Both the position numbers and the translations under genes were made by a program. DNA of 64,000 nt from an uncultured Acidobacteriota bacterium. Lineage in GTDB: Bacteria; Acidobacteriota; Terriglobia; UBA7540. Position 1 is the first letter of the stretch. The number at the start of each line of letters is the position of its first letter. The stretch spans positions 736,001 to 800,000 of the forward strand of contig CAWDSK010000005.1 of the NCBI GenBank assembly GCA_963804995.1. The letters run 5' to 3'. This document shows, one piece after another, positions 2,679-22,196 of the stretch. The notes below the pieces were generated by a model. That model saw only the letters and a program-made list of their open reading frames with translations. It ran no database searches and was not told the DNA's origin.

Positions 2679-3041
2679 ATGTTCATAGCAGACCGTCCGG
2701 GATCCACGAAGCAGCAGTTGCAGGGAGCGGTGCACAAGTACTTCACAGGGGAGGAGTACGAGCCCCACCAGATGGTTTACTTCAAGCTGTTTGAGAGTCA
2801 GTTGCCGGTGGTGGAAAGGGCGCTGTACGTGGCCTTGCGGATGGTGGGGACGGAGCGCTCGCGGGGGTATTGCCTGGAACTAGTATGCGCGGATTTTCTG
2901 GCGGGGAGGGGGGAGGAGTCCTCACCTGACGAAATCTTGATGGTGATCCACCGCTTCGTGCATCTGCTGTCGCGGGAGTATCAGGCGCGTCTAGCTTGCC
3001 AGGGCGAGGGCAGGGAATTGGAGACAGCCGGAAGATGCTGA
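2679..3041 (+). pseudogene. 3' part of conserved unknown ORF X (repeat copy B)
   Basis: …YFKLFESQLPVVERALYVA…ERSRGYCLELVCADFLAG…; near-identical segments at 3969-4218 and 14080-14266; no clear RBS or start. Confidence 0.7.
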
Positions 3042-3203
3042 AGGAATTGAAGCGGATCAAGCCGGAGAGCAGATTTACCGGTGCTTGATGAAGCAGGTTT
3101 TCGAGAGCGACGAATGGCGGTGTCAGAAGTGTGGGTCAGTAGAGTACCTGCAGGTGCACCACAAGATCAAAAGGAGCCAGTTGGGCAACGACTCCATCGA
3201 TAA
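3035..3203 (+). pseudogene. HNH endonuclease, frameshifted and 3'-truncated (copy B)
   Basis: 1-nt deletion near 3063 relative to copy C; homology stops after aacgactccatcgataa, before the second CxxC. Confidence 0.75.
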
Positions 3204-3205
3204 AT

Positions 3206-3400
3206 TCAGAACTGCTTGGGGATGCCAGCCTGCTTCAGGACTGCGTTGGCGGTATGGCGGGATAGAATCTTGTGGTCTACCGGGAATTATCGCTGAGTAG
3301 TCGGGCTGTACCAAATCTCGTGATCGCCACGTCCTGGACGCTCATAATAACATCCGTGGGCGCGAAGGATTTCCTTCAGTTTCGGCGTGTAGCTCGCCAT
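3206..3400 (-). pseudogene. hicA: HicA-family toxin with an in-frame TAA at codon 38
   Basis: Manual translation MASYTPKLKEILRAHGCYYERPGRGDHEIWYSPTTQR*FPVDHKILSRHTANAVLKQAGIPKQF*; G-D-H HicA motif; TGATG-coupled to the upstream antitoxin; TAA at 3287-3289. Confidence 0.85.
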
Positions 3401-3645
3401 CAGGACTCGACGGACACCAAAGCAGTTTCTTCACTATGGGCGCGAACCAGAACGTTGACTACCTTTTGCCCCGGTTCCAGCCCGCCGTTTAGCTCAAAAA
3501 GCTCCGGCACTAAAACGCGAACCTTCTCAATCAAGGCATTCATTGACTCGGCTTCTGCCACCAAGCCTGGAATGTCTTCACTCTCCGCGACCCAAACCCC
3601 TGCCTCGGAATCCCAGTGCGCCTCGACTTGATAGGTTCGACTCAT
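3400..3645 (-). CDS. hicB: DUF1902/HicB-like antitoxin
   Basis: WDSEAGVWVAESEDIPGLVAEAES…VPELFELN signature. Confidence 0.85.
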   Translation of the reverse strand: MSRTYQVEAHWDSEAGVWVAESEDIPGLVAEAESMNALIEKVRVLVPELFELNGGLEPGQKVVNVLVRAHSEETALVSVES

Positions 3646-3968: not shown

Positions 3969-4218
3969 CGAGAGCCAGATGCCGATGGTGGAAAGGGCTC
4001 TGTACGTGGCCTCGCGGATGATGGGGACGGAGCGCTCGCGCGGTTATTGTCTGGAACTGGTGTGCGCAGATTTTCTGGCGGGGAGGGGTGAGGAGTCGAC
4101 GCCAGAGGAGATCTTGATGGTGATCCACCGCCTCATGGATCTCCTGCCGCGGGAGTACCAGGCGCGTCTTGCCGGACAAACCAGGGGCAGGGAACTGGAG
4201 ACAGCCGGAAGACGCTGA
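3969..4218 (+). pseudogene. 3' fragment of ORF X (repeat copy C)
   Basis: Homology to copy B begins abruptly at gagagccag (ESQMPMVERALY…). Confidence 0.75.
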
Positions 4219-4223
4219 AGAAA

Positions 4224-4505
4224 GTGGAGCGGATCAAGCTTGGAAGGCAGGTTTACCGGCGGTTGATGAAGCAGGTGCTGGAGCGAGACGGGTGGCGATG
4301 TCAGAAGTGCGGCTCGGTCGAGAATCTTCAGGTTCACCACAAGATCAAGCGGAGCAAGTTGGGCAACGATTCCCTCAATAACCTTGTGACCCTCTGCGCC
4401 CACTGCCACATGGCTGAGCATGGGCAGCTGAGCTACACCATTCCAGCCGCCAGAATCTGCAGCAAGCCTAAACCACGTACAAAGTGCCAATCCCACCCGC
4501 AATGA
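4224..4505 (+). CDS. HNH endonuclease, the most intact copy (copy C)
   Basis: Both CxxC pairs and HH…N present; the ATG seen in copies B and E is ACG here (4213), so GTG 4224 is the probable start. Confidence 0.85.
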   Translation: MERIKLGRQVYRRLMKQVLERDGWRCQKCGSVENLQVHHKIKRSKLGNDSLNNLVTLCAHCHMAEHGQLSYTIPAARICSKPKPRTKCQSHPQ

Positions 4506-4564
4506 TTTGGTAACAATTTGGAGTTGACAAACGCTATATGGTGTCCGGTAGCGTTCTAGGTATG
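4503..4564 (+). promoter_or_regulatory. Conserved promoter-like segment after HNH (TTGACA at 4524-4529)
   Basis: Homologous segment at 15721-15781 (TTGACA 15742-15747). Confidence 0.5.
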
Positions 4565-4694
4565 AGTAGATGTATGTGCGTATTCTCGCCGGACGAAATC
4601 AAATCCAAAAAATCCCAATCGAGGTTTTTATCGCCGGACCCGTGTTGCCCACTGCCATTTCTACATGGGTTTCGAGTTAGGAGGAGTGAAAACC

Positions 4695-5177
4695 GTGAAA
4701 AATAGTAGGGATCGCACTTGCCAGAAAACCAAGGCGGACGGTAGTCGCTGCAAAGTTAGGGTAATCAATGGATCGAGTTTTTGCTACTTTCATGATCCGG
4801 CGAAAGCGCACGAGCGACAGGCGGCGCAGCGGGCGGGCGGAATAGCCCGCAGCCGCCAAGCTGCGGTTCTGCCTCTTGAAACGCCAGATTGGCAGGTTCG
4901 CAAGATTTCCGATGTCGTGGAGATTCTGGGACAAACGCTGAACCAAGTCCGCCGGGGCCAAATTGACCCAAGGGTGGCCAATTCCGTTGCGTACATTTCT
5001 GGAGTTCTGCTCAAGGCGATGGAGAGAGGACCCATGGAAGAGCGGATCACCACTCTTGAGGGGATTCTCAAGCAGCCGCCCTCACAAAGGGTGCCTTTCT
5101 TAGGTCCTTCCGCGCCGGACCGAACCTTCAGTTTCGAAACCCGAAGTACGGAGGATAACGATGGCAAAAAACAGTGA
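4695..5177 (+). CDS. Hypothetical protein with N-terminal C-x3-K-x2-G-x2-C…FC-x2-H zinc-finger (DUF5763-like)
   Basis: CQKTKADGSRC…FCYFHDP; AGGAGG RBS before GTG 4695; C-terminal MEERITTLE coiled coil. Confidence 0.65.
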   Translation: MKNSRDRTCQKTKADGSRCKVRVINGSSFCYFHDPAKAHERQAAQRAGGIARSRQAAVLPLETPDWQVRKISDVVEILGQTLNQVRRGQIDPRVANSVAYISGVLLKAMERGPMEERITTLEGILKQPPSQRVPFLGPSAPDRTFSFETRSTEDNDGKKQ

Positions 5178-6159
5178 CATGAGATTGAAAAGGCTAGAAA
5201 TGGCCATGACACCCAGCCAAGAGGCGATTGCCTATGTGCTGAGCTTATTGGAGCGATTCAATTCGGCGCTTGAGTGCTCAATCTGGTGCCTCGAGGATCC
5301 GGCTGGCGCGTCCGCTAATGACGAGCTAATTGAAAAAGTCCAACACAATGTCCTCAGGGCACTGAAGGATCAACGCCCCGATGAGAATGAGATCAATAAA
5401 GCAGTGATCGAAGCCTATTGGGACGTGGCGTGGCGGCTCAAGATGCTTGTCACAATCAACGAAAGTGTTGAGGGAAAAGTCAAGGATACCCTTCCGCTCT
5501 ATTTTTGGCTCCTCGGCCGGATGCAGTATAAGATTCGCGCTAGCTTTGGCGAAGAACTCCTTCATCGTTGGCTCATTTTGCCCAAGGGAGTTCCCGGTCG
5601 GATTTCCGCTAAAAGTGTGCCCTTTAGTATTAACAAAGAAGTGAGGTTAGGTAGCGGACAACAACACGAGGAGTGGAAGCAGGAAGTACGGAGGCTGCTG
5701 AAAACTCTTTATGCCCTTAGAATCGCTCACGATCAAATGGTGACAGAAGGTTTCGAGGGCCACCCCATTTTGTGGAAGGACACGGGTGAAGCTCTCGCTG
5801 ACCGGACTAGGGATGCGGAGAAACTGCTCGGAACATATACCAACGCGGTCACTATCCAGAGGGAATGCCTCAAAAAGGACGTGCCGTTCAACCTAGAGAT
5901 TTGGGCCATGGACAGCAAGTGGCTAGGCCATGTACGTCGGGAAGTTCAAATAAACCTAGACGAAATCAGGCAGGAAGCCAGATCGGTAGCATCGGAATAC
6001 GTTGCGCATTGGGCTGACATCGCAGGTGCTCAGGTTTTGGCGAGCAATGGTGACCCGAGTGGCGTCATACGTCTTATGAAGCGGAGCGCTGAAACTACGA
6101 AGGCCAGAGATCTAAAGTCAGGAAACCCGGACCTAGGCGGCTGCGATCGAAGTAAATAA
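5161..6159 (+). CDS. Hypothetical helical protein coupled to the upstream gene
   Basis: 332-aa ORF with GGAGG RBS overlapping the previous stop; no recognised motif. Confidence 0.65.
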   Translation: MAKNSDMRLKRLEMAMTPSQEAIAYVLSLLERFNSALECSIWCLEDPAGASANDELIEKVQHNVLRALKDQRPDENEINKAVIEAYWDVAWRLKMLVTINESVEGKVKDTLPLYFWLLGRMQYKIRASFGEELLHRWLILPKGVPGRISAKSVPFSINKEVRLGSGQQHEEWKQEVRRLLKTLYALRIAHDQMVTEGFEGHPILWKDTGEALADRTRDAEKLLGTYTNAVTIQRECLKKDVPFNLEIWAMDSKWLGHVRREVQINLDEIRQEARSVASEYVAHWADIAGAQVLASNGDPSGVIRLMKRSAETTKARDLKSGNPDLGGCDRSK

Positions 6160-6365: not shown

Positions 6366-6405
6366 AGAGATTACCTAGCAAGACCCCCAGGGGGTGGTAA
6401 TCTCT
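6366..6405. repeat. 10-bp inverted repeat AGAGATTACC-N20-GGTAATCTCT with an inner CCCCC-A-GGGGG hairpin
   Basis: Read directly from the sequence. Confidence 0.7.
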
Positions 6406-6472
6406 CCGCCAGTATCAATCAATTCAGACCCATTTGATTCGTGAAGGAGGACCCAAAGAGAGACTACCCAAA

Positions 6473-6627
6473 TCCACCACAAGATAAAGAGGAGCCATCT
6501 GGGCAACGATTCCCTAGATAATCTTGTCACCCTATGTGCTTACTGCCACATGGAAGAGCACGGGCAGTTGAGTTACACCATCCCAGCCGCCAGAGTGTGC
6601 AGCAAGCCCACGCCACGAAAAAAGTGA
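6473..6627 (+). pseudogene. HNH 3' fragment (repeat copy D)
   Basis: HHKIKRSHLGNDSLDNLVTLCAYCHMEEHGQLSYTIPAARVCSKPTPRKK*; the following ~50 bp matches the flank of copy A. Confidence 0.8.
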
Positions 6628-6675
6628 AGATCCTGCCTGCCGGAATCTCCGGAGTTGAAGATCTGCGGTCACTGG

Positions 6676-7485
6676 TCAATGGGGGCAGACAATCTCTTGG
6701 GGTCTTTGCAGTAGGCCTGGCCTGTAACTATACTGCCATAAGACCAGAGACCAATCCGCTCCTTCTGCTGCAACGGCCGCAACGTACCCAGCGCCTGGGG
6801 CCAGGGCGCAAAGAGACCATTGGCCGGCTTCGGTGTTGTCATTGTTGTTGATGGGCAGGTTGGTTAGTTGGCCTGGAGCGAGCGAAACTGCGAAGCTGGC
6901 AAGATCGATGCTGAGGCCTTCGCCCCGGGCTTTGATGTACGCTTCCTTGCGTGTCCAGCACTGAAAGAACGCTTCGGTTTGAGCAATCTTCGGAAGCTCG
7001 CGGAGCGCAGTGACCTCCTGGGCTGAAAAGAAGCGCTCCGCCACACGGTCGCTGTTCGGGAATGGATGGACACGCTCCAGATCAACGCCCACTTCGCGGC
7101 GCCAAGCGAACGCGAAGAGCGCAAGCCCGTGAGAATGAGAAAGGTTGAAGCGTAAGTACTCGGTTCCACTGCCGGGGACCAAGGCCGGTTTGCCGTGGGC
7201 ACCACCGCAAAATCGCAAATCACCAGGACTAGTCCGCAGATACCGAGCCAACAAAGCACGAAGGGTCCCTCGCGCGGCAATGTAACGGGCAGCGTCCGTG
7301 GGGGAGTAGAATTTCTCCGCCCTTGCCTGCTCGTCTGCTGATAGCGTCTCACGCATCTGCAGGACCGCAGTTGAACCAACATCGAGATCAGCGCGCCACA
7401 CATGCACTTCGTCATCGCGCAACGTGGCCGGCTCAAGCACAGCCTGCCATAAGGACACGGTATGTTCCATCGTTCGATTCGTCAT
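6676..7485 (-). CDS. sfp: Sfp-type 4'-phosphopantetheinyl transferase
   Basis: GKP, FNLSHS, VGVDLE and WTRKEAYIKARGEG motifs. Confidence 0.93.
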   Translation of the reverse strand: MTNRTMEHTVSLWQAVLEPATLRDDEVHVWRADLDVGSTAVLQMRETLSADEQARAEKFYSPTDAARYIAARGTLRALLARYLRTSPGDLRFCGGAHGKPALVPGSGTEYLRFNLSHSHGLALFAFAWRREVGVDLERVHPFPNSDRVAERFFSAQEVTALRELPKIAQTEAFFQCWTRKEAYIKARGEGLSIDLASFAVSLAPGQLTNLPINNNDNTEAGQWSLCALAPGAGYVAAVAAEGADWSLVLWQYSYRPGLLQRPQEIVCPH

Positions 7486-10400
7486 GTGGGCCCAAGGTGA
7501 GTCTGGGTGAGTTGGCCCTCTCCCTGAAAAGCACCCAGGTAAGTTCGAATGTAGTCGGCCACCACACCGATATGCTGTGTCCGGCAGGTAACGTGATCGC
7601 CCGGCAGCTCGTGAACATCCACCTGCGAGACCAACCTCCCCCAGCCGGCCGTGGGGTCAGTCGGATATTCGTGTAGCAGGGACTTGGTCCGTAACAGCAC
7701 GATGCGGCCCTGCAAAGGTTTTGGGCGGTAGTTCATCAAGATGGCACCAAACCGTAGATCACGAAGAGACTCCAGGGGATCATCGAAAGCCGGGGAGGGG
7801 ACACCCAACTCCTCGGGCGGAGTCCCCAGCAGCCGCAGAACCTTTCTCCTCGCCGTCTGCAAAGGGAGAGCAACGAGTGCCCCCATGCCCTGGCGCAACG
7901 CGGCTTTGGCGCGTAACACATGATTGCGAACCCGGCCGTAGGCAAGATCCTGCCCATTGTCATCGACCCTGGCCAGCCAGCCCACGCTGCGGATCAACGC
8001 CTTCAGCCAGCCGAAGTGCGCCGGAACTGCAGTGTCGAGCAGAATCACCAATCCTACCTCGCGACCCTGCTGCACCATCTGCCGCGCCATCTCATAGGCT
8101 ACATTCCCGCCGTTGCAGAAGCCGCCCAGCAAATAAGGACCTTGAGGCCGAAGTGCGACCAGGTGCCGGATATTCTCCTCAGCCATCGCTTCAACACTAG
8201 GAAGTAATGGCTCGCCGCCGAACCCATTTGGCATTACGCCAAAGAACGGTTGGTCGGGGCCGAGCAACCGCGCCAATTTCCGGCAGTAGAGCCCACCCGT
8301 CGAATCGCCATGGAGGAAAAAGAAAGGCACATGAGAACCTCCGGGTTGAATGGGCACGATCGCCGACTTCATCTCTTTACTACTCTCGGCTCGCAGGCAC
8401 TCTGCCAGATGTTGAATGGTTGCCTCGGCAAACAAGGTTGAGAGCGGAAGTCGCCTGCCGCAGGCCTCCACGATCCGGCCCATCATGCGCACGGCAAGGA
8501 GAGAGTGACCGCCCAAATCGAAGAAGTCGTGCTGGATACCAATCGGGTGCACGTCGAGAAGCTCTTCCCAGATTTCTGCCAATTGCCATTCAAGCACGTC
8601 GCGGGGCTCAACGTAGCGATCCTCAACCCGTAACTGTCGGCTCTCAACGGGTAGCGCCCGGCGGTCAACCTTCCCACTCGAGGTAAGGGGCAGGGCCTTC
8701 AAGGTTGTGTAGTCGGAGGGCACCATATAGTCGGGCAGCTTTTGCTTTAGAAAATCCCGCAACGCTTTCCAGGCGGGCGCACTTTCCGGACAACGGGGCA
8801 CCACGTAAGCTACCAGGCGCTTTCCGCCCGGGCTCTCCTCCCGAACCACGACGGCCGCGGCCGATACTGCCGGGTGCTCTGCCAAGGCCGACTCGATTTC
8901 TCCCAATTCAATGCGGAAACCCCGAACCTTTACCTGATTATCAAGGCGGCCCAAGAACTCAATATTGCCGTCCGGCAAGTAGCGGCACAAGTCGCCGGTT
9001 TTGTAGAGACGAGCCCCAGGTTGGATGCTAAAGGGATCAGGAATAAATTTCTGACAGGAAACCTCGGGCCGGTTCAGGTACCCACGGGCCAGCCCATCTC
9101 CCCCGATGCATAATTCGCCGGCAACCCCGATTGGGACAGGCTGCAAATACCGGTCGAGAATGTACACGCGGGTGTTGGCGATGGGCCTGCCGATGGGAAT
9201 CGATCTGGCCAAGGGGCTTTGGTTGCGGGGAATCCGATAGCAACATGCAAAAACTGCGCTCTCCGTCGGCCCGTACCCGTTTACCAACTCCGTGTTGGGC
9301 AGCAGCGACAAGGCACGACAAATATCAGGAACGGAAAGCGCCTCCCCTCCCACGAGCAACTGCGAAACGGGTAAGAGTGCATCCGGAGCGGCATCAATCA
9401 CCGTGCTGAACAGCGAAGGCGTAAACCACAAGGTCGTCACCTTCTCTTTCTTGATTACGGCGCGGAGTTGCCCCAGATCCGGGATACGCTGCGGAATAAG
9501 CACGCAGCGCCCTCCGTGCAGGAGGGCGCCCCAAATCTCGAAGGTGCTCGCATCGAAGGAAATCGAGCCGTACTGGAGAAACACCTCATCCGGCCCGAAG
9601 TGGATGTAATCCGTTCCACACAGCAGGCGCACAATGCCGCGGTGGAGAACCTCGACTCCCTTCGGGGTTCCTGTGGACCCAGAGGTGTACAGCACGTAGG
9701 CCACATGATCGGGCTTCACTTCGAAGCGGGGATTGTGATTATCGGCCCCGGGGTCGGAATCCTCTAACCTGTCGAGCCAGACCACCCTTAGGTCCTGTTG
9801 AGGCAGCCCATGTTTCAGTCGCTCCTGGGTCAACAATACCTTAATTCCCGAATCCCCCAACATGAAAGCCAATCGTTCTTTCGGATAGGTAGGGTCCAGA
9901 GGAACAACTGTACCTCCCGCCTTGAGAACTCCCAGTAGTCCTACCACCATCTCCAGCGAGCGATCCACGAAGAGCCCCACTCGGGTATCCAATCCAACGC
10001 CCCAGCCTCGAAGTTGATGAGCTAGCCGATTGGCCTGACGGTTCAATGCTGCATAGGTCAGACGGTGCTCTTCCAAGGTAACCGCCACGGCTTCCGGCCG
10101 TCGCTCGGCCTGCGCCTCGAACAGTTCCTGAAGGGTCGAATCTCGCGGATACTCTACGTTCGTACGATTCCATTCCACCAGAATCTGATTCCGCTCGGTG
10201 GGAGTCAGCAAGGGAAGCGAGGCCAAGTGAGCGTCGGGTTCGGTGACGATGGCCCCGAGCAGCGTACGGTAGTGGCTAGCCATGCGCTCGATCGTGCCCT
10301 GATCAAAAAGATCGGCGTTGTAAACGAAAGAACACTTCAACTCCCGGCCCCTGGGGAGGATCTCAAGGGTGAGATCGCAGGGCGCAACCGGGACCTCGAA

Positions 10401-11651
10401 CTCGAACTCACTCACCTGCAGGCCGGGAATCTCGATCTTTTCCTCAGGCAGGTTTTCAAGATTAAATACCACCTGGAAAAAGGGCGTTGTGCTCAGGTTT
10501 CGATCCGGGCGCGGAGTCTCCAGTACTTGCCCAAACGGCAAATCCTGGTGGCTGTAAGCGCCGCGGCAGGTCTCGCGAACACGCCCGAGCAGTTCCCGAA
10601 ATGTGGGATTACCCGACAGGTTTGTCCGAAGAACTAGAGTGTTGAGGAAGAGCCCGATCAACTTCTCCGTCTCCACCCAATTCCGGCCTGCTGTCATCGA
10701 TGCGATGGCTATATCTTCAGATCCCGTATAACGCGAGAGCAGCACCTGGAAGGCCGCCAGGAGTGGCATGAACAGCGTGGCATTCTCCTGCCGGCCCAGT
10801 GCTTTCAGAGCATCGGCGAGCCGCTCCGGCAAGAGGACTTCGGCACATCCGCCCTGGTGCGACTGAGCGCTTAAACGGGGCCGGTCCGTCGTTAGGTCCA
10901 CGGGAACGCAGCCGCTCAATTGCTTTTTCCAGTAAAGAAGCTGGCGTTCGAGCAGTTCGCCGCCCACGCGCTGACGCTGCCAGAGAGCGAAATTCCCATA
11001 CTGGATTGGGAGCTCCGCGAGTGCAGGCGAACTCCCCGTAGTTAATGCGCCGTAGAGATTTGCGAACTCGTCGGCAAAGACCCGGGCTGACCATGCGTCA
11101 AAAGCGATGTGGTGGAATACGAGGAGCAAGACGTGCTCCTGCTCGCATAGCCGGAAGAGCGTGGCTCGCAAAAGGGGATCCTTGGCCAAATCGAAGGGCC
11201 GGAGAGCCTCCTCCGTGGCCAATCCCTTGGCATGCGACTCGCGCTCGGTGGGAGCCAGTTTAGAGAGCTCAATTAGGCGCAGGTCCAGAGCCAGGCTTGC
11301 AGATATAACCTGTGCAGGTTGACCGTCGCGGGTAAAGAAGCGCGTGCGCAGAACCTCGTGACGATCGATGATGGTTTGCAGGGCCTGCCGGAGGGCGGCC
11401 TCGTCAAGTGACCCCGTCAGACGCCGGGCGAACGGGCGATTATATGCGGGACTCCCTGGCTCCAACTGGTCGAAAAGCCAGAGCTTCTCCTGCGCGAACG
11501 AAAGCGGTAGAGAGCCCCGGTCAGCCAGCCGCGGAATAACGCGGGGAACGCGGCGGGACTGGAGCTTCTCCCGCCAACTTGCATCGAGCTGCGTGGATTC
11601 CTGCCGGGGAGTGTCCTCAGGCTCGGGCGGGATGGCATCCGTGCTTTTCAC
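7482..11651 (-). CDS. NRPS, C-A-PCP-TE
   Basis: C: LSFAQEKLW, HHIAFDAWS; A: YTSGSTGTPKG, YGPTE, YKTGD; PCP: FFDLGGHSLL; TE: GGFCNGG, PGDH; start set at GTG 11651. Confidence 0.93.
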   Translation of the reverse strand: MKSTDAIPPEPEDTPRQESTQLDASWREKLQSRRVPRVIPRLADRGSLPLSFAQEKLWLFDQLEPGSPAYNRPFARRLTGSLDEAALRQALQTIIDRHEVLRTRFFTRDGQPAQVISASLALDLRLIELSKLAPTERESHAKGLATEEALRPFDLAKDPLLRATLFRLCEQEHVLLLVFHHIAFDAWSARVFADEFANLYGALTTGSSPALAELPIQYGNFALWQRQRVGGELLERQLLYWKKQLSGCVPVDLTTDRPRLSAQSHQGGCAEVLLPERLADALKALGRQENATLFMPLLAAFQVLLSRYTGSEDIAIASMTAGRNWVETEKLIGLFLNTLVLRTNLSGNPTFRELLGRVRETCRGAYSHQDLPFGQVLETPRPDRNLSTTPFFQVVFNLENLPEEKIEIPGLQVSEFEFEVPVAPCDLTLEILPRGRELKCSFVYNADLFDQGTIERMASHYRTLLGAIVTEPDAHLASLPLLTPTERNQILVEWNRTNVEYPRDSTLQELFEAQAERRPEAVAVTLEEHRLTYAALNRQANRLAHQLRGWGVGLDTRVGLFVDRSLEMVVGLLGVLKAGGTVVPLDPTYPKERLAFMLGDSGIKVLLTQERLKHGLPQQDLRVVWLDRLEDSDPGADNHNPRFEVKPDHVAYVLYTSGSTGTPKGVEVLHRGIVRLLCGTDYIHFGPDEVFLQYGSISFDASTFEIWGALLHGGRCVLIPQRIPDLGQLRAVIKKEKVTTLWFTPSLFSTVIDAAPDALLPVSQLLVGGEALSVPDICRALSLLPNTELVNGYGPTESAVFACCYRIPRNQSPLARSIPIGRPIANTRVYILDRYLQPVPIGVAGELCIGGDGLARGYLNRPEVSCQKFIPDPFSIQPGARLYKTGDLCRYLPDGNIEFLGRLDNQVKVRGFRIELGEIESALAEHPAVSAAAVVVREESPGGKRLVAYVVPRCPESAPAWKALRDFLKQKLPDYMVPSDYTTLKALPLTSSGKVDRRALPVESRQLRVEDRYVEPRDVLEWQLAEIWEELLDVHPIGIQHDFFDLGGHSLLAVRMMGRIVEACGRRLPLSTLFAEATIQHLAECLRAESSKEMKSAIVPIQPGGSHVPFFFLHGDSTGGLYCRKLARLLGPDQPFFGVMPNGFGGEPLLPSVEAMAEENIRHLVALRPQGPYLLGGFCNGGNVAYEMARQMVQQGREVGLVILLDTAVPAHFGWLKALIRSVGWLARVDDNGQDLAYGRVRNHVLRAKAALRQGMGALVALPLQTARRKVLRLLGTPPEELGVPSPAFDDPLESLRDLRFGAILMNYRPKPLQGRIVLLRTKSLLHEYPTDPTAGWGRLVSQVDVHELPGDHVTCRTQHIGVVADYIRTYLGAFQGEGQLTQTHLGPT

Positions 11652-11671
11652 AAAGATTTCAATCCTGCAAC

Positions 11672-13516
11672 CTAATTTGAGGATGGCCGCTCGGTCTCGT
11701 CGCGACTCACTCTCTCGCCTTCTAGCTGCAGCTTGGCACCCAGCACCAGAGTCTGGTCCGCAATCGTCGGTGCATCCAGGAAGTCGAGCAAAGTAATGTC
11801 CACGTCCAACTGTTGGCACACGCGAGCGACGGTCCGCGCAGCCAGCAGCGAATCACCGCCCAGGTCGAGAAAGCGCTGATGGATGCCGACGGAAGGGATC
11901 CTAAGCACCTCGCACCAGATCTCGGCAAGGAATTTCTCTGCGGGTGTGCGCGGAGCCACGCTCTCGCTTGATTGGTCGGAAACAGCCACCGCCTGCTCCA
12001 CCAAGCCCAGCTTTTCCGCCAAGCCGATTCGCTGGGGTTTGCCTGTCGGCCCCAGCGGGATGGCATTGACCGCGAGGATGCGGCGGGGGACCTTGAAGTG
12101 GGCCAGGCGTGCGGCCACGACCTGGCGGAGCTGCTTTTCAGTGACACTTGTATCGCGGAGGACAACCGCTGCCGCTACCTCCTGCCCAAGTGACTTATCT
12201 GGCATGGCAAAGACCACTGCTTGGGCGACAGCCGGGTGCTGCAATAAGACCTCTTCCACCTCGCGTGGCGAGACCTTTTCGCCCCCCCGATTGATGATCT
12301 CCTTGATGCGGCCCTCGATGTAGAGGTAGCCGTCCGCGTCCAGGCGGCCCAGGTCTCCCGTGCGGAACCAGCCATTAGTGAAGGCCTGGTCTGCAACCTG
12401 ATGGGCGTAACCGTGCATGACGTTCGGCCCACGCACAACGATCTCAGCCACTTCACCTTGTGCCAGCAGTCGCGCGCCGCCTTTTTCCATGATGGCAATT
12501 TCTGTGCCGGTCGCCACGCCCACGGAACCCGGCTTGCGGATTTTGGGCGGAAGCGGGCTGGATGCAATCTGGTGGGCGGCCTCGGTCATTCCATAAGCCT
12601 CAACAACCGGGACGCCGAACACACTCTCCAGCTCCGCCATCAGCGTGGGGGAAAGCGGAGAAGAGCAGGAGCGGATGAATCGCAAGCGCTCCCGGTGGAT
12701 GGCTTGGTGGTTCTGAGCACCGCGGGCCAGAATTGCCCGGTGCATGGTTGGCACGGCGGTATACCAGGTCGGTTGGAAAGCGGCCGCCCAGTCGAAAAAG
12801 CGTGGCGCATCAAAGCCGGGCGTCGTGACTACTCCTGCCCCGGCGCACAGTGAAGACAAGACCGATGCCACGAGACCGTGAATGTGGAAAAGCGGCATGA
12901 TGTTCAGGCACCGATCGGACGGAGTGAGTGCCAGCGCGTTGCGGATGTGGTCGGCGGAGGCGCACAGGTTCTGGTGGGTGAGCGGAACCATCTTCGGCCG
13001 TGACGTGGTTCCAGAAGTATGGAGCACAAGGGCGATGTCCTCCGCCTCAACAGTTCCGGGAGGGGACGCGGGCGTGGGGCTGACTCCCTGAAAACTGAAA
13101 AGTCCTGCCGCATCTTCCCATTTCGGGGCAATTTCGATTACACGAATTCCACGCCTTCGGGCTACTTCAATGGCGGGTGAGATCACTCCGGCTTGGACTA
13201 CTAGCGCCTTGGCCTCCAAGTCCGACAGGTAGAATTCAAATTCGGAGGCGCCATAGGCCGGATTCAGCGGGGCGGCTACGGCGCCGCAGGCAATTGAAAG
13301 AACCCCCACCGCCATCTCTGGACCGTTGGGCAGGACGATCGCCACCTTGTCGTTGCGATGGATGTCGAACGAGCTCAGGCAATTCACAACCTCATGGACC
13401 TGTGTGATCAACCGCCCGAAGGTTAACGGAGTACGCCCCGGCGCCAGGATCGCCTCTGAATCAGGCGAAAGCCGAGCGTGACTCTCGAGCAGTTGGTAGG
13501 TCGACGAAAACGTCAT
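11672..13516 (-). CDS. Oxalate-CoA-ligase-like (AAE3/Pcs60/Fum10 family) adenylating enzyme fused to a carrier protein (A-PCP loading module)
   Basis: LHTSGTTSRPK, PLFHIHGLV, TWYTAVPTMH, RFIRSCSS, EAYGMTEAAHQ; C-terminal FLDLGGDSLL. Confidence 0.85.
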   Translation of the reverse strand: MTFSSTYQLLESHARLSPDSEAILAPGRTPLTFGRLITQVHEVVNCLSSFDIHRNDKVAIVLPNGPEMAVGVLSIACGAVAAPLNPAYGASEFEFYLSDLEAKALVVQAGVISPAIEVARRRGIRVIEIAPKWEDAAGLFSFQGVSPTPASPPGTVEAEDIALVLHTSGTTSRPKMVPLTHQNLCASADHIRNALALTPSDRCLNIMPLFHIHGLVASVLSSLCAGAGVVTTPGFDAPRFFDWAAAFQPTWYTAVPTMHRAILARGAQNHQAIHRERLRFIRSCSSPLSPTLMAELESVFGVPVVEAYGMTEAAHQIASSPLPPKIRKPGSVGVATGTEIAIMEKGGARLLAQGEVAEIVVRGPNVMHGYAHQVADQAFTNGWFRTGDLGRLDADGYLYIEGRIKEIINRGGEKVSPREVEEVLLQHPAVAQAVVFAMPDKSLGQEVAAAVVLRDTSVTEKQLRQVVAARLAHFKVPRRILAVNAIPLGPTGKPQRIGLAEKLGLVEQAVAVSDQSSESVAPRTPAEKFLAEIWCEVLRIPSVGIHQRFLDLGGDSLLAARTVARVCQQLDVDITLLDFLDAPTIADQTLVLGAKLQLEGERVSRDETERPSSN

Positions 13517-13576
13517 GGGATTGTTGACCTAAATGGACGTGTGCTATTTGCTTTCTACCGTTTTGCGCCCAGAATG

Positions 13577-13759
13577 TTAAGCGAAAAGCACTGGCACGGC
13601 AAGCCAGACCTCCATGCTTCCTCCGCGCAGACCCACAGGGAACTCCGCGAGGCTCTCGATGGCATCGCACAGTCCGTCGAACCATTCCCGCGTCGCGCCC
13701 CGAGCGATCCCGTCGAGGTCCCGCTCAGCCCGCTTTCGATATAGGACGCGGTACGCCAA
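13577..13759 (-). pseudogene. parE: ParE/RelE toxin, truncated after about 41 aa
   Basis: MAYRVLYRKRAERDLDGI…WFDGLCDAIESLAEFP followed by unrelated sequence. Confidence 0.7.
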
Positions 13760-14021
13760 AGTGTTTCTTTCTCAATTGTGCATGAACCTGTTTAGCAGGA
13801 CGGCCCTCCCCCTTTTCCGCCAGGGCTTCGTTCACGGCCTCGATGGTTTCGAAGCGATCTTTCCACTCTTCATAAGCTTCGGCATCGAACACGACGAAGC
13901 GCGCTTTGCCCTGCACAGTCAATACCAGGGGCCTATGGGTTTTCTTGAGCAGGCGGGCGAACCGGGCCGTTTGGCGTTTGAAGGTCGTCAGAGGATGGAT
14001 GTCCTGGGCTACGTCAATCAT
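13725..14021 (-). CDS. Phd/YefM antitoxin
   Basis: MIDVAQDIHPLTTFKRQT…PLVLTVQGKARFVVFDAEAYE. Confidence 0.85.
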   Translation of the reverse strand: MIDVAQDIHPLTTFKRQTARFARLLKKTHRPLVLTVQGKARFVVFDAEAYEEWKDRFETIEAVNEALAEKGEGRPAKQVHAQLRKKHFGVPRPISKAG

Positions 14022-14079
14022 TTCTACGCACCTGAAAAGCATCTTATCAAGTGCTAAGCAGGGAGGCAAGGTTTTCCAC

Positions 14080-14514
14080 GCGCTCGCGGAGGTACTGCCT
14101 GGAACTGGTGTGTGCAGATTTCCTGGCGGGGAGAGGTGAGGAGTCGACACCCGAGGAGATCTTGATGATGATCCACCACCTCGTGCATCTGCTGCCGCGG
14201 GAGTATCAGGCGCATCTTGTTGGCCAAATCGCAAGATGGAAATTGGAGACCCCCGGAAGATGTTGAATAAAGTCAAGCGGATCAAGCTGGGAAAGCAGCA
14301 GATCTACCGGCGGTTGATGAAGCAGGTCCTGGAGCGAGACAGTTGGCGATGTCAGAAGTGGGGCTCGCTGGAAAACTTCCAGGTCCACCACAAGATCAAG
14401 AGTAGCCAGCGGGGAAATGACGCGCTCGAAAGCCTCGTGACCCTCTGTGCTCACGAACATGGCAGAGCGTGGGCAGCTTTTCTACACAGTCCCGGCTGCC
14501 AGAGTGTGCAGCAA
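14080..14514 (+). pseudogene. ORF X 3' fragment + HNH pseudogene (repeat copy E)
   Basis: YCLELVCADFLAG… ends at 14266; HNH starts at ATG 14260 with Cys>Trp (CQKWG) and a frameshift in the second CxxC. Confidence 0.8.
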
Positions 14515-14624
14515 GGTGACCGATTCCGCCAGAACCGCGCCTTTCAGTGAAACGGTCGGGATTGGCCTTGAATGAAGGGTTACCTGCGCTCATTGAATGC
14601 GAAAGTCGGTAAGCCTGGTCATTC

Positions 14625-15017
14625 TCACCAGATCGTGTGAAGCGCTTTCGACCGACGGATATCACGATCGGCCGTAACCAGAGGTAGGGCCTCAGCCAGC
14701 GCGGTAGCCCCGATCATTCGATCCGCCGGATCACTGGGATAAGCTGCGGGGAGTCCATGGGCGCGCACACAGGCACGGCCAGTGATTGGCAGGACAACGA
14801 ATCGGCTCTCGACTTCACTCAAGAAGGATTCCAGGCTGATGTCGAGATGGATGCGTCCTTTACTCGCGAGGGTTGTCAACTCCAAGAGAGTGATATCGGA
14901 AATTGCCACGCCATCTCCCTTCGCACGCGCCTTGTCGATGGCGGTTCTTGCCTTCCTGGAGAGCTGGCTTGGATCAAACGCCAGCCAGACGACTACGTGT
15001 GTGTCGACGAGAATCAC
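14625..15017 (-). CDS. vapC: PIN-domain toxin VapC
   Basis: ILVDTHVVVW…ISDITLLE…DPADRMIGATA…LVTAD. Confidence 0.92.
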   Translation of the reverse strand: MILVDTHVVVWLAFDPSQLSRKARTAIDKARAKGDGVAISDITLLELTTLASKGRIHLDISLESFLSEVESRFVVLPITGRACVRAHGLPAAYPSDPADRMIGATALAEALPLVTADRDIRRSKALHTIW

Positions 15018-15241: not shown

Positions 15242-15611
15242 CCAGGACTCCTTATCATAGTCATTATACCATGGTCATAATCGCGTCCGACTAAGAAACG
15301 CCCTCCTATGGCCGGGACCGTGGATGGAGCGCAGAGCCGCTGGCTCCACGCTGCCGGGGAAGTGCTGCCTCTGGACGCAAGCAACGAAGCCCAGGGGATC
15401 CGATTCGATATTAGACCCCCTCAAGACAGCCTGGCGCGTCTTGGCCTACCAAAGCTGTAAACACCGCGTTCGTGTGGGCCACCATGCGCGTCTGCTTCCA
15501 ATTTGGGCTACCCGTTCTTTAGACTCTCCCGCCTGTTTCCACGAAGCACTCATGGCAGAAGCAGGTCAGGGAAGGTTTCTCACACCAGTCCTCCTGCGAG
15601 AACAGGAATCT

Positions 15612-15781
15612 TGTGCTCACTTTCATATGGGCTGAGCATGGACAGCTTCTCTATTCAGTCCCAGCCGCCAGAGTGTGCAGCAAGCCCAAACCACGTACGA
15701 AGTGCCAATCGCAGCCGCGGTGATTTGGTGACGGTTTCGGGTTGACAACCCATACATGGTGTTCGGTACGTTCTGAGTATG
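15612..15781 (+). repeat. HNH extreme 3' fragment plus promoter-like tail (repeat copy F)
   Basis: Matches 4394-4564, including …KPKPRTKCQS and the TTGACA-containing tail. Confidence 0.8.
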
Positions 15782-17709: not shown

Positions 17710-18168
17710 TCATTGATCTTGGTAGACATTCAAGAGCTGTAGCCGCGTGGCCTCAAGGCGCTCCTCGACGACATGCGCGAATCGTTTCAGGAGTTCGTAA
17801 CCCAGATCGTGGTCGCGTTCGGCTTTTTCGCGAAGACACTTTCCATCCGCGGCAAAGGCGCGAGTGCCCTCGATTGTTTGGGCGGAGAACTTCCAACGGT
17901 AAGGAGGAAAAAGCCAAGACCACCCCAGGATTTCACCGGCGTGGAGGGTTAGGATAGTTAGGGGGCCACGTCGTTCGGAATGTATCCGCAGCGCCACTTT
18001 CCCTTGGCGGATCAAGTAGAAATGATTGGCCTCTTCGCCTTCCTGGAAAATAATCTTTCCAGCCTCGAAGCGCACGTTGGAAACACAGCCGACGATGGTC
18101 TCGATGTGTCGCGCGGGCAGATCATGGAAAAACGGATGCGCACTCAGAATACCTTGTAGAGTTTCCAT
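17710..18168 (-). CDS. Stand-alone cyclic-nucleotide-binding domain protein
   Basis: IFQEGEEANHFYLIRQGKV…GEILGWSWLFPPYRWKF; no HTH. Confidence 0.88.
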   Translation of the reverse strand: METLQGILSAHPFFHDLPARHIETIVGCVSNVRFEAGKIIFQEGEEANHFYLIRQGKVALRIHSERRGPLTILTLHAGEILGWSWLFPPYRWKFSAQTIEGTRAFAADGKCLREKAERDHDLGYELLKRFAHVVEERLEATRLQLLNVYQDQ

Positions 18169-18377
18169 GATGCCCCTCCTCCATCGATGGGATCAGATTG
18201 GGTTTTGGTTCTTCCCCCGACCTTGGCGCCACGGCTGGATGCGACTTCCGCCCGTACGCGCCTTTCCTGGGAGGAGGCGGATTTTGTTACGCCCCGCACT
18301 GCGCCCACCCACCTGTTTTAATCCGGTTGCGGCGTAACGCGCCCACACAGAATGGGACTTCGGGTTACCCGAGCCCG

Positions 18378-18836
18378 CTACTTTTCGACCGCCACAAGGT
18401 GCACTGAAAGTGCCTCTACGCGATTCTCGATAATTTGCGCAAATCGTTTCATGAGTTCGTACCCAAGGTCGTGGTCTTCGTCACATCTGGCACAAACGCT
18501 CCTTCCGTCCAAGGAGATGGCCCGTGTGACATCGAGCGCTTTGGCCGTGAATTTCCAGCGGTAGGGCGGAAAAAGCCACGACCATCCGATGATGTCTCCT
18601 TCTTCGAGGGTCATCAGCGTCAAGGGTTCGACACGGTAGGAAACAAGTTGCAATGCCACCCTGCCGTTCCGAATCAGATAACAACGCTGCGCCGGTTCAC
18701 CCTCTTCGAAGATTAAGTCTCCGGGCTCGAACCTCACGACGGTTGCGCTCTCGACGAGGGTTCGGAGATGTTGTTCCTTCATACCCCTAAGCAATGGATT
18801 TTCGCCCAACACCTTCTCTAAAGTTATAGTCTCCAT
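18378..18836 (-). CDS. Stand-alone cyclic-nucleotide-binding domain protein (paralog)
   Basis: IFEEGEPAQRCYLIRNGRV…GWSWLFPPYRWKF; start at ATG 18836. Confidence 0.88.
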   Translation of the reverse strand: METITLEKVLGENPLLRGMKEQHLRTLVESATVVRFEPGDLIFEEGEPAQRCYLIRNGRVALQLVSYRVEPLTLMTLEEGDIIGWSWLFPPYRWKFTAKALDVTRAISLDGRSVCARCDEDHDLGYELMKRFAQIIENRVEALSVHLVAVEK

Positions 18837-18849
18837 GGTTCTCCTCCCC

Positions 18850-19368
18850 TTAAGATTCTTTGTCGACACACTTACCCGTGACGATGGATTTACCGCACGC
18901 TAACTCTTCGAGGGTCTCCTGATACAGCTTTTCCTCGGTAACTTTCTTGGGCGCCAACCCCAAGGCAACCGCCACCCCGTAAAGGATGGCCTCGGGTCGT
19001 GGCGGACACCCGGGAACGTAAAAATCAACCGGAATAACCTTGTCTGCGCCTCCCATCACGTTATAGGTGTCGAACCAGCAGCCGCCTCCCGTCGCACAGG
19101 AGCCGATAGCGAACGTAAGCTTCGGATTGGGAACGGCCTCTACCAACCTCTTGAGCGCCGGCGCAACCTGTCGTGTGACGGGGCCGCTAACCAAGAGGAC
19201 ATCCGCGTGCCGGGGAGAGCCCACGAGCTTGATCCCGAAACGCTCGGCATCATAATAAGGAGTGAGAACATTGATAACTTCGATATCACACCCGTTGCAC
19301 GCCCCGCAGTTGGCGTGGTACACCCAAAGCGCTTTGGGAAACGCCTTCTTGCAGAGACCTTTTAGCAT
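18850..19368 (-). CDS. hyfI: Group 4 [NiFe]-hydrogenase small subunit (HycG/HyfI/NuoB-like)
   Basis: CGACNGCDIE, SPRHAD, GSCATGGG, VPGCPPRP. Confidence 0.9.
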   Translation of the reverse strand: MLKGLCKKAFPKALWVYHANCGACNGCDIEVINVLTPYYDAERFGIKLVGSPRHADVLLVSGPVTRQVAPALKRLVEAVPNPKLTFAIGSCATGGGCWFDTYNVMGGADKVIPVDFYVPGCPPRPEAILYGVAVALGLAPKKVTEEKLYQETLEELACGKSIVTGKCVDKES

Positions 19369-19427
19369 GCTCGCACCTCATGCAAATAGATCAACCACGA
19401 TCGGCTGACGGGAGGCAGAGAATCGCG

Positions 19428-20939
19428 TCACCTTCGCAGGGTAGCCAGCACTGCCGCCGCGCGGTCCAGCAGCGGGTATGGCATTTGGGGGTAAATTCCA
19501 AGCAATCCGCACATTCCCGCCAAAAACACCATGGGGAACCACATTCGCGCCGGCACTTCCCTTACCACCGAGGCGGAGTTACTGCTCGATCCTGGGTCAC
19601 CCCAAAACACTCTGTACGCTGCTCGAACCATCACGACCATGGTCAAAATACTCACCAGGACGGCGATGACTGCCGCCCACCACAACCCGGCTCTGGCGAG
19701 GGCCAAATACACGGTCAGTTTGCTCCAGAATCCATTGAGTGGCGGAAAGCCCGCAATCGCCAGTGCCCCTAGAAAGAAACAGGCGCTCGTGATCGGCATC
19801 TGCTTTCTGAGCCCGCCCAGCTCGCTGATTCGCCGAGCGCCCGTGGCATACATCACTGCGCCCACGCACATGAACAACAGTGACTTGTAAAGCGCATGGT
19901 TGAGTAAGTGAAAAAGGCCGCCATAACATCCCAGGTAAGTCCCAAGCCCGATGCCGACCAGCACATAGCCCATCTGGCTTACGGATGAATACGCCAGGAG
20001 CCGCTTGAGGTCGTTTTGGGGCAAAGCCAGGATGATGCCCAGCAGCATGGTGAACGTGCCCAGCGCCACGAGGAAGATCGTGACCTGAGGCCAGGCGGGG
20101 TAGAAGATGCTCACCGTGCGGGCCAGGGCATACAGCGCCATCTTGATCATCACGCCTGACAGCAGCACGCTAATCGGCGTCGGCGCCTCGGCGTGCGCGT
20201 CTGGGAGCCAGGGATGAAACGGCGCAATGCCCGCTTTGGTCCCAAATCCAATCACGAGAAACGCGATGGCAATCGCCGCCGTGCCGCTGGGTATGAATTG
20301 CACCACGTTGCGGATGTTGCTGATCAGCAGGGCGCTCGCTCCTCCCAGCTTATCCGTGGCCGCCGCACCGGCGTAGAGCAACACGCAACCGAACAGGGCG
20401 AAGGTAATCCCAATGGTGAGCAACATGAGGTACTTGTAGCCCGCTTCCAGCGCGCGGCGGTCCCAATAGAAGGCCACCAGCAGGCCTGAGGTGAGTGTGG
20501 TGGCTTCAATGGCGACGTAGAGCATGATCACGTTGTTGGTGACGCATCCCCATAACATGGTCCCGAGAAACCACATCAGCAGACCATAGAATATGCGAAG
20601 GCGGCGCGCGGTCGTGTCCTTGGCCAGGTGCTCCTCGAGGTATCGTACGGAGTAAATCGAGGTGAGCAGTCCGACCCCGCCGATGATGACCACCATTAAG
20701 GCACTCAAGGCATCGACGCGGAGTTCGCCGCTCCAGGTTGTCAGGACCGCCCCCTGCATGATCCGGTAGGCCATCCAAGCGCTCAACCCGGTGACAAGCG
20801 CCGCTGTACTAACGGATAACCATTGTTGAAAAGCGCGACCCAGGCGCGTTGCCGAGAATATGATTGCGCCCGTCGCTAGCGGCAAGAGGAATATAATCGC
20901 GGGTAGGACGGATGTTTCGTTGAGCGGCTCGCTCGCCAT
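19428..20939 (-). CDS. hyfF: Antiporter-like membrane subunit (HyfF/NuoM-like)
   Basis: LEAGYKY, WLPDAHAEAPTP, LKRLLAYSS; many TM segments. Confidence 0.85.
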   Translation of the reverse strand: MASEPLNETSVLPAIIFLLPLATGAIIFSATRLGRAFQQWLSVSTAALVTGLSAWMAYRIMQGAVLTTWSGELRVDALSALMVVIIGGVGLLTSIYSVRYLEEHLAKDTTARRLRIFYGLLMWFLGTMLWGCVTNNVIMLYVAIEATTLTSGLLVAFYWDRRALEAGYKYLMLLTIGITFALFGCVLLYAGAAATDKLGGASALLISNIRNVVQFIPSGTAAIAIAFLVIGFGTKAGIAPFHPWLPDAHAEAPTPISVLLSGVMIKMALYALARTVSIFYPAWPQVTIFLVALGTFTMLLGIILALPQNDLKRLLAYSSVSQMGYVLVGIGLGTYLGCYGGLFHLLNHALYKSLLFMCVGAVMYATGARRISELGGLRKQMPITSACFFLGALAIAGFPPLNGFWSKLTVYLALARAGLWWAAVIAVLVSILTMVVMVRAAYRVFWGDPGSSSNSASVVREVPARMWFPMVFLAGMCGLLGIYPQMPYPLLDRAAAVLATLRR

Positions 20940-20974
20940 AGGGTCGTCCCTCTGCACTTACCGTTTGACCGCGA

Positions 20975-21649
20975 TTACCACCTTAGTTCCCGCAGCCGAA
21001 ACGTATCCGTGGATCCAAATGCCATTCGTACTCCGCCTATCACGTACAGGAGAAGGAATACGGTCACCACCACTTCCGTCGCGACGCCGAAGAGCGCGGT
21101 TTCCGGCAACCCGGGAGCTAGGCTCACCAGACTCAGGTGTACGCCGTTTTCAAGCAGGCAGAGCCCGATCACCGTTTTGATTGCGTCGCGACGTGTCAGC
21201 ACTGCGTACAGGCCCAGCGCGAAAACCGTGGACGCCACCGCCAGATTCGTTCGGAACACATCGAGTTGCCCCAATGCGGTGGGCGCGAGAAGCGTGGTTC
21301 GAGCGTGGGTGAGATGGAAGAAGCCTAACATCAGCAAGGCGGCGATCACGGCGGAGGGGCCAAAGCCAATCACCGGCTTTAATTCCTTGTCATCCACATC
21401 ACGAATCGCCCGGAACAGGAACCAGGGTGTAAGGATCGCCTTCGTGACCAGGGCGGTGGCAGCCCACCAGTAGAGGGCGTGGTTGACCGCCGCAAAGCTC
21501 AGGAGCAGACCCACAATCAGGAGCGCCTGACAGAGGTAGGCGACAATCGAAAACTTGAGCCGCCGCATCTCCACCGCCGCCACCGAAGTAATCACCAGGG
21601 TCAGGCTCAGGGTCTCGATTAAACTTGCGTGCAGCGCCTCCGGGTTCAT
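20975..21649 (-). CDS. hyfE: HyfE-like membrane subunit
   Basis: Hydrophobic; TKAILTPW and GLCLLENG motifs. Confidence 0.8.
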   Translation of the reverse strand: MNPEALHASLIETLSLTLVITSVAAVEMRRLKFSIVAYLCQALLIVGLLLSFAAVNHALYWWAATALVTKAILTPWFLFRAIRDVDDKELKPVIGFGPSAVIAALLMLGFFHLTHARTTLLAPTALGQLDVFRTNLAVASTVFALGLYAVLTRRDAIKTVIGLCLLENGVHLSLVSLAPGLPETALFGVATEVVVTVFLLLYVIGGVRMAFGSTDTFRLRELRW

Positions 21650-22098: not shown

Positions 22099-22122
22099 CG
22101 TAACCTCCTGCCAGTCTCAGTT

Positions 22123-22178
22123 GATGTAGCGCCGACCTTCAGGCCGGCATGTGCTGACCTCAAGGTCAGCGCTACATC
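22123..22178. repeat. REP-like palindrome (GATGTAGCGC…GCGCTACATC)
   Basis: Intergenic inverted repeat with internal hairpins. Confidence 0.7.
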
Positions 22179-22196
22179 CGACGGCCGCGTTCGGCC

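Follow-up and report, generated by a model that had tools for sequence, protein, structure and literature searches.

Can a relative of the oxalate-coenzyme A (CoA) ligases start a peptide assembly line, and what would such a line make? This question is raised by a 64,000-nucleotide stretch of DNA from an uncultured Acidobacteriota bacterium (contig CAWDSK010000005.1, positions 736,001 to 800,000; here, the window). The window holds three consecutive minus-strand genes (13516-11672, 11651-7482, and 7485-6676), all with unbroken frames, that form a small nonribosomal peptide synthetase (NRPS) cassette with its own phosphopantetheinyl transferase (PPTase). An earlier note on this DNA had proposed N-oxalyl-valine or another di- or tricarboxylate amide as a product. 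Our analysis supports the N-oxalyl-valine reading with somewhat better than even confidence: the kinship and pocket of the starter, together with a valine-type code in the second module, point to a self-contained two-module NRPS that would make N-oxalyl-valine or its counterpart with another aliphatic residue.

The layout of the cassette can be read directly from its letters. Pfam gives AMP-binding, AMP-binding_C, and PP-binding in gene 1; Condensation, AMP-binding, PP-binding, and Thioesterase in gene 2; and ACPS in gene 3. This bears out the order described earlier, namely, adenylation (A) and carrier (T, or PCP), then condensation (C), A, T, and thioesterase (TE), then Sfp, and we located every motif quoted for it. 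Gene 1 (11672-13516, minus strand, as are all features of the cassette; 614 aa; recognized as an open reading frame [ORF] and by Pfam, sequence, and fold matches) is a starter module. Its AAE3/Oxs-type acid-activating A domain (aa 1-505, with TWYTAVPTMH at aa 250, RFIRSCSS at aa 279, and TEAAHQ at aa 311) is fused to a carrier domain at 11756-11932 (Pfam and motif location), whose phosphopantetheine Ser556 lies at 11851-11849. Gene 2 (7482-11651, 1,389 aa; ORF, Pfam, and start comparison) is a C-A-T-TE module. By Pfam and motif location or mapping, it contains a Condensation domain (10179-11516, HHIAFDA at 11114-11094), an amino-acid A domain (8670-10121), a carrier domain (8394-8585, GGHSL with its Ser at 8504-8502), and a thioesterase (7557-8297, also recognized by its solved-structure match) with a Cys nucleophile (GFCNG at 8123, Cys at 8117-8115), an Asp (LLDT), and a His (GDHVT). 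The start of gene 2 is most likely the GTG at 11651, 20 nt past the gene 1 stop, because AGGA precedes it and two relatives (L083 and L085) have the same start; the ORF-finder start at 11819 is less apt. Gene 3 (6676-7485; Pfam and NCBIfam) overlaps the gene 2 stop in an ATGA at 7485-7482 and encodes an Sfp/HetI-type PPTase, its best NCBIfam match being the PPTase HetI, under that model's cut-off. The HHxxxD motif, the carrier serines of both T domains, and the Cys-Asp-His triad of the thioesterase are all intact and a PPTase is present, as the layout of an acyl-loading NRPS requires. Searching the genome assembly (92% complete) by tblastn with the window's domains returned no other C, TE, or Sfp matches, and we found no MbtH-like gene in the genome. 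A scan of the flanking genes likewise agreed with the earlier note in finding no transporter or tailoring gene; the neighbors are Phd, PIN, nucleotidyltransferase, HNH, and unknown ORFs.

Of the 102 solved sequences that the starter A domain matched at E<=1e-30, the four highest-scoring are all oxalate-CoA ligases (AtAAE3, 393 bits; LsOCS, 388 bits; Pcs60, 334 bits; and a Pcs60 fragment), and the next non-NRPS matches are FadD13 (216 bits) and MatB (200 bits). A fold search with an AlphaFold model of the starter (mean predicted local distance difference test score of 81.7, with residues 310-324, including H315, below 50) placed AtAAE3, LsOCS, and Pcs60 structures at ranks 1 to 7. Fatty, aryl, and malonyl ligases score approximately 120 to 180 bits or more lower and are also lower by fold; by both measures, the starter lies nearest the AAE3/Pcs60 enzymes. 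The kinship that the earlier note had recognized from motifs thus holds by sequence score and predicted fold, and also by pocket residues and by the gene neighborhood of free-standing kin.

A description of AtAAE3 names eight oxalate-pocket residues, three of which (Ser289, His319, and Lys500) touch oxalate directly, and presents Ser289 and His319 as conserved only in oxalyl-CoA synthetases (PMC8905533). Aligned to AtAAE3 V215, H216, C288, S289, A313, M314, H319, and K500, the pocket of the starter (12038-12883) consists of I212, H213, C284, S285, G309, M310, H315, and K493. Six of the eight are identical, with I in place of V215 and G in place of A313, and the three direct contacts (S285, H315, and K493) are all kept. 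The Ser and His contact pair occurs in none of the six other ANL-family matches of this genome, while all three contacts are kept by every one of the 68 free-standing homologues and by 235 of the 247 fused to a carrier. The starter acid is probably oxalate. The starter departs from the free-standing, CoA-using oxalate-CoA ligases in its fusion to a carrier. We file it as a carrier-loading relative, not a CoA ligase, because the fused carrier has an intact Ser556. The fusion itself, which the earlier note had regarded as out of the ordinary, is present but is not peculiar to this locus, since a large family of such fusions exists.

Motif mapping of the second A domain reproduced the ten-residue code DAFWLGGVFK. 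It is identical at 9 of 10 positions to DAFWLGGTFK, which is listed as the valine code of malacidin MlcM (PMC9113097). The nearest relative of the cassette, L162, has the code DALWLGGTFK in an A domain that is 79% identical. These comparisons sustain the valine-type assignment made earlier: the second residue is very likely aliphatic and, with less assurance, likely valine itself.

The closest solved relatives of the Condensation domain are Txo1, Txo2, and DhbF (306 to 310 bits), along with TycC, all of which we take to be elongation types; AB3403 is among the weakest (112 bits). AB3403 is the best solved match of the thioesterase and has a Cys at the same position. A Cys nucleophile occurs in 10 of 10 close relatives, in 40 of 75 family thioesterase hits, and in 15 of 40 single-chain forms. 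GFCNG and HHIAFDA are both present, as the earlier note said, but both are common in the family, and we discarded the idea that they give this locus a special role. In the ten close relatives, this Cys thioesterase comes after A domains of the alpha type and of the beta type alike, and the side chain of valine offers no nucleophile; the simplest release is therefore hydrolysis, and plain hydrolysis is the probable one. We also considered the ring-forming type of Cys thioesterase, presumably represented by ObiF1 and SulM, in which the Cys goes with a last residue that bears a beta-hydroxy or beta-amino nucleophile. The Cys is present here, but the residue predicted from the code has no nucleophile in its side chain, and the cassette does not fit this type.

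In the pathway that we propose, the AAE3-type A domain would activate oxalate with ATP and load its own carrier; the C domain would then join the oxalyl group to the valine (or another small aliphatic residue) that the second module carries, and hydrolysis by the Cys thioesterase would free N-oxalyl-L-valine. Both carriers would be activated by the PPTase. Oxalate would come from outside the cell or arise as a by-product of glyoxylate oxidation. The substrates, the mode of release, and the product are all predictions from sequence.

Free-standing relatives of the starter bear on its acid. In a genome scan, the best 80 loci among the matches listed comprised 69 free-standing and 11 carrier-fused domains; overall, we examined 42 fused loci. 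A PanE-type reductase, identified by motif search and BLAST, lies within 5 kb of the ligase in 59 of the 69 free-standing loci and within 300 nt in 46, versus none of the 42 fused loci, and an OxlT-family gene is found beside 5 of 69 versus 0 of 42. The three PanE-type representatives that we checked belong to one NCBIfam subfamily, PRK06522.1-4. PanE is the oxalyl-CoA reductase of Methylobacterium extorquens according to PMC9485241, and we infer that the PanE-type neighbors are its orthologues. The closest free-standing kin, 55 to 62% identical to the starter and with the same pocket, thus resemble enzymes of oxalate assimilation; the fused forms have this pocket as well but lack the catabolic partner. 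A plasmid search gave two free-standing matches, one of them adjoining a 2-dehydropantoate reductase. Only five alignment columns distinguish fused from free-standing domains, and none is in the acid pocket; our guess is that they may sit on the CoA-binding surface.

For the fused family itself, we examined the best 120 long homologues of 1,644 proteins at E<=1e-100 (7,994 scored); the figure of 1,644 should not be read as the size of the family, since a score that high is within reach of ordinary multi-module NRPSs. A PP-binding domain is present in all 120 listed homologues of similar length (query included). The starter domain comes first in 119 of the best 120 long homologues, which fits an amine-free starter. 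In 40 of these 120, ligase-T-C-A-T-TE stands on a single chain, that is, genes 1 and 2 are fused. Sources of the family include Cyanobacteria, Chloroflexota, Ca. Electrothrix, Poribacteria, Binatia, Brocadiia, Gemmatimonadota, Verrucomicrobiota, and Bryobacteraceae. The long proteins carry 88 different A-domain codes, so the residue after the starter varies; among the 40 minimal forms on a single chain, we read the codes of 16 as glycine-type.

Some fused proteins carry other domains. In P0167, P0208, P0219, and P0220, the starter is followed by a divergent C domain, a code that we take to be cysteine-type, and a nitroreductase-family domain; their product would be an oxalate-derived thiazole. 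P0185, P0217, and P0234 end in an aminoglycoside 3-N-acetyltransferase-family domain in place of the thioesterase, and their starter acid may differ because all three lack the His315 equivalent. At L026:4882-9344, a fusion of starter, carrier, and hexapeptide repeat sits between two near-identical (94%) ICL/PEP-mutase-family genes, adjoined by a UDP-sugar dehydrogenase.

Closer to the window, 6 of 28 other genomes in the genus, and 12 of 132 in the family, had a match to the cassette gene searched for. Genes 1 and 2 occur in the same order at ten loci (L081, L083, L085, L086, L133, and L160 to L164), with the PPTase following in seven. DNA identity across the ten is 66 to 81%, with gene order kept, and the similarity is confined to the cassette, with edges at approximately 6732 and 13515-13605; the flanks mostly differ, although L133 and L163 have common flanks. 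DNA comparison shows that L083 shares an upstream leader (13517-13605, minus strand), which is where the cassette probably has its 5' edge.

Within gene 2, DNA and pocket comparisons delimit a segment of the second A domain (9190-10100, minus strand) that is replaced by another core in six of the ten relatives (L081, L083, L133, L161, L163, and L164). In these six, similarity is lost from 9190 to 9860-10100, the pocket region is 34 to 38% identical versus 60 to 69% at the end of the A domain, and the code is VDWVWSL..K, which we read as beta-alanine-type; in the papers that we searched, no support for that reading of VDWVWSLADK was found. The other four have aliphatic-type codes and 70 to 79% pocket identity. 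The pattern is as expected for recombination inside the A domain, and the six sister cassettes with the VDWVWSL-type core are predicted to make N-oxalyl-beta-alanine. Two further loci of the window's family, L134 and L135 (in genomes G242 and G294), have a longer version in which an additional module (code DPRLLSQMTK) stands ahead of a valine-type C-A-T-TE with a Cys thioesterase. At L086:8864-13809, an FTR1 iron permease, FtsX-type permeases, and an ABC ATPase with an iron-repressor domain directly follow the cassette, a hint of a metal-related role in that relative only.

Several observations weigh against N-oxalyl-valine as the product, and the first concern the supply of oxalate. In the host genome, we found no Oxc or Frc above cut-off, no OxlT or PanE-type reductase match, no oxalate decarboxylase, and no ICL-family lyase, the sole PF13714 match reading as PanB. 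Across the 11 cassette-bearing genomes, there was likewise no ICL-family lyase or Oxc, although one of these searches had no positive control. In a FastTree tree of 126 domains (all from bacteria, four of them paralogues in this genome), 68 of 69 free-standing domains form a single clade (support 0.855) apart from the fused ones, so the specificity of the starter may have shifted. The remaining one, L015, tallied as free-standing, is a 1.7-kb contig fragment that clusters with fused domains. The root of this tree is unreliable (outgroups at 26 to 33% identity), and we claim no direction of evolution from it. In addition, 12 of 247 fused homologues lack one of the three oxalate contacts; the exact code DAFWLGGVFK was not found in the literature searched; the gene 2 frame breaks in three of the ten close relatives (L133, L160, and L162), and the carrier is broken in one further genome (L165), which may reflect decay or assembly error; and the best NCBIfam name of the starter is FadD7 fatty acid-CoA ligase (429 bits versus a cut-off of 650). 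The FadD7 label does not discriminate, however, because free-standing PanE-linked relatives receive it too.

Among the alternatives, the likeliest is a line of the same layout that begins with some other small acid, such as glyoxylate, malonate, or, as for Fum10, a tricarboxylate, and so makes an N-acyl-valine of another kind. The fused domains stand on their own branches and the 12 exceptions show that the family can drift. A GlcD-like glycolate oxidase subunit (527 bits versus a cut-off of 568) could supply glyoxylate in a genome with no oxalate source found. An ICL/PEP-mutase-family lyase adjoins 2 of the 42 fused loci and 1 of the 69 free-standing loci, and this family, which we take to include the oxalate-forming oxaloacetate acetylhydrolase, speaks for oxalate. 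So does the pocket of this copy, which equals that of the PanE-linked free-standing enzymes. For LsOCS, according to PMC8905533, glyoxylate is accepted at 61-fold lower efficiency than oxalate, malonate costs four orders of magnitude, and succinate is inactive. As a precedent for another acid, Fum10 supplies activated tricarballylate in fumonisin biosynthesis (PMC7711896). We therefore hold oxalate at probable and no higher, because no oxalate route was found in the genome and because of the Fum10 case; another small acid is unlikely.

It is less probable still that oxalyl-valine is made but is passed by the Cys thioesterase to an outside acceptor (an amine, an alcohol, or a surface glycan), so that the free acid would not be the end product. 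The prevalence of the Cys nucleophile among close relatives and family thioesterase hits is compatible with such a transfer, as are the fused starters that lie amid glycosyltransferase or hexapeptide-acyltransferase genes (L006, L008, L029, L047, L083, L139, L141, L146, and L167) and the hexapeptide-repeat domain fused to the starter in L026. Among the scanned neighbors of the window and of nine of the ten close relatives, however, there is no glycosyltransferase match, the exception being L083; one neighbor in L164 is a GH99-like protein with a sub-threshold WbsX match. The flanks vary widely, and therefore no acceptor pathway travels with the cassette.

The surroundings of the cassette suggest a further alternative, which we consider distinctly improbable: intact but idle cargo in a mobile region rich in toxin-antitoxin genes, with nothing made in this host. 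The cassette sits within an array of degenerate repeats (up to approximately 500 nt, 65 to 86% alike), each comprising the end of an unknown ORF and an HNH ORF. Six copies lie in the window, at 1562-1823, 2793-3225, 3970-4550, 6404-6648, 14018-14515, and 15430-15768; the fourth and fifth, both on the plus strand, flank the cassette downstream and upstream, respectively. Another copy lies just before the window (G000:C5:732737-733196), and two partial copies are on another contig (C6:361920-363337). The HNH ORF is intact at 4224-4505 (PF01844). Between the repeats are a nucleotidyltransferase and HEPN-like pair (443-1475), a PIN toxin and partner (1896-2746), a DUF1902/HicB-like gene (3400-3645), two unknown ORFs (4665-6159), the NRPS cassette with a Phd/ParE remnant, and a second PIN gene (14625-15017). 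The two unknown ORFs overlap (4665-5177 and 5161-6159, plus strand; 170 and 332 aa), are lower in GC content, and have no Pfam or NCBIfam match. The array looks like a cassette-collecting hotspot, and the HNH-containing repeat was absent from the 13 loci of relatives that we tested.

Just upstream of the cassette, a Phd antitoxin gene (13725 to approximately 14021) precedes a truncated ParE-like toxin ORF (13577-13759, minus strand; 60 aa, a weak Pfam match at E 0.055) that runs into the cassette leader. Because this ORF ends after 60 codons inside the leader, the arrangement suggests that the cassette arrived by insertion or recombination there. This setting, the patchy distribution in the genus, the lack of an oxalate supply among the genes found, and the absence of a minus-strand sigma-70-like promoter in 13400-14300 would all suit idle cargo. 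Nevertheless, every reading frame and catalytic residue is intact, and gene order is kept over ten loci at 66 to 81% DNA identity with differing specificity cores, which points to selection on the whole cassette. Finally, it is very improbable that the starter is just a common ligase for fatty or aryl acids (FAAL, FadD, or DhbE type) and the product a lipo- or aroyl-amino acid, since the top NCBIfam names, though fatty acid-CoA ligases, are all under cut-off and extend to the PanE-linked relatives, and such ligases trail the oxalate ligases by score and by fold. Elsewhere in the window, and unrelated to the cassette, a hydrogenase/complex-I-like membrane operon with two cyclic nucleotide-binding genes occupies 17710-22260 (minus strand; PF01058 and PF00027, one representative each).

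With N-oxalyl-valine as the preferred product, a broader picture can be put forward tentatively, at slightly under even confidence: an oxalate-CoA ligase became a portable NRPS starter in many phyla, making N-oxalyl amino acids and peptides. The cassette would be the minimal form, diversifying by A-core swap (valine here, beta-alanine in the sisters), and the 16 single-chain relatives with glycine-type codes would be N-oxalylglycine synthetases. N-oxalylglycine is the standard 2-oxoglutarate mimic, and the products, with environmental oxalate as their building block, might act as natural inhibitors of 2-oxoglutarate enzymes or as small chelators of metals. If this is true, N-oxalyl amino acids and peptides, including the predicted N-oxalylglycine, become a compound class that sequence alone can predict, and the known catabolic sinks of soil oxalate are joined by a biosynthetic one. 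The fatty acid-CoA ligase names in NCBIfam would cause such clusters to be predicted as lipopeptide producers. At 6.8 kb, with three intact genes, its own PPTase, and cheap substrates, the cassette is a good test case, and the sister cassettes with the swapped core provide a ready-made control while illustrating how A subdomains recombine in nature.

Oxalate as an NRPS starter was not found in the literature searched, a search in which most subscription journals lay outside coverage, supplements were not covered, and some queries were loosely specified; the fusadapamide paper mentions oxalyl only for beta-N-oxalyl-diaminopropionate (beta-ODAP). Two systems are likened to the cassette by description only: the fumarylalanine NRPS SidE of Aspergillus fumigatus, which we assume to have a two-module layout with an NRPS-type A domain as its starter, and Fum10/Fum14, in which Fum10 is presumably a member of the AAE3/Pcs60 ligase family. 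SidE, like the cassette, is a small NRPS for a dicarboxyl-amino acid amide, but it is fungal and uses fumarate (bioRxiv 10.1101/2020.12.01.406157). With Fum10/Fum14, the cassette shares an acyl-CoA-ligase-type enzyme that feeds a polycarboxylic acid to a carrier/condensation protein; there, however, the acid is tricarballylate, the bond is an ester to a polyketide, and the ligase is unfused to the carrier (PMC7711896). A paper on the fumonisin cluster gave no link of Fum10 to oxalate ligases. The beta-ODAP pathway of grass pea (LsOCS and a BAHD acyltransferase) likewise joins activated oxalate to an amino acid nitrogen, as described in PMC9485241, but it is CoA-based and uses two free enzymes, the side-chain amine of diaminopropionate, and no thiotemplate.

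The enzymes closest to the starter are the oxalate-CoA ligases AtAAE3 (PDB 5IE0/2/3), LsOCS (Lathyrus, 6QJZ), and Pcs60 (yeast, 8AFF), all EC 6.2.1.8, which are its top sequence and fold matches (36 to 43% identity in fold alignments). They are free-standing and pass oxalyl to CoA, whereas the window's starter is carrier-fused and heads an NRPS. Its free-standing kin, which have its pocket, resemble the Oxs-PanE2 oxalate assimilation system of the M. extorquens type in the PanE-type gene nearby (59 of 69 loci). That system is catabolic; the fused starters differ in having PanE at none of 42 loci and none in the host genome, in their separate tree branches, and in their biosynthetic context. 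Acinetobacter AB3403 (PDB 4ZXH) shares with gene 2 the C-A-T-TE order and a Cys thioesterase but differs in its remote C domain and in its starter. Set beside these systems, the cassette is a real, intact, and minimal member of an NRPS variant that is apparently undescribed.

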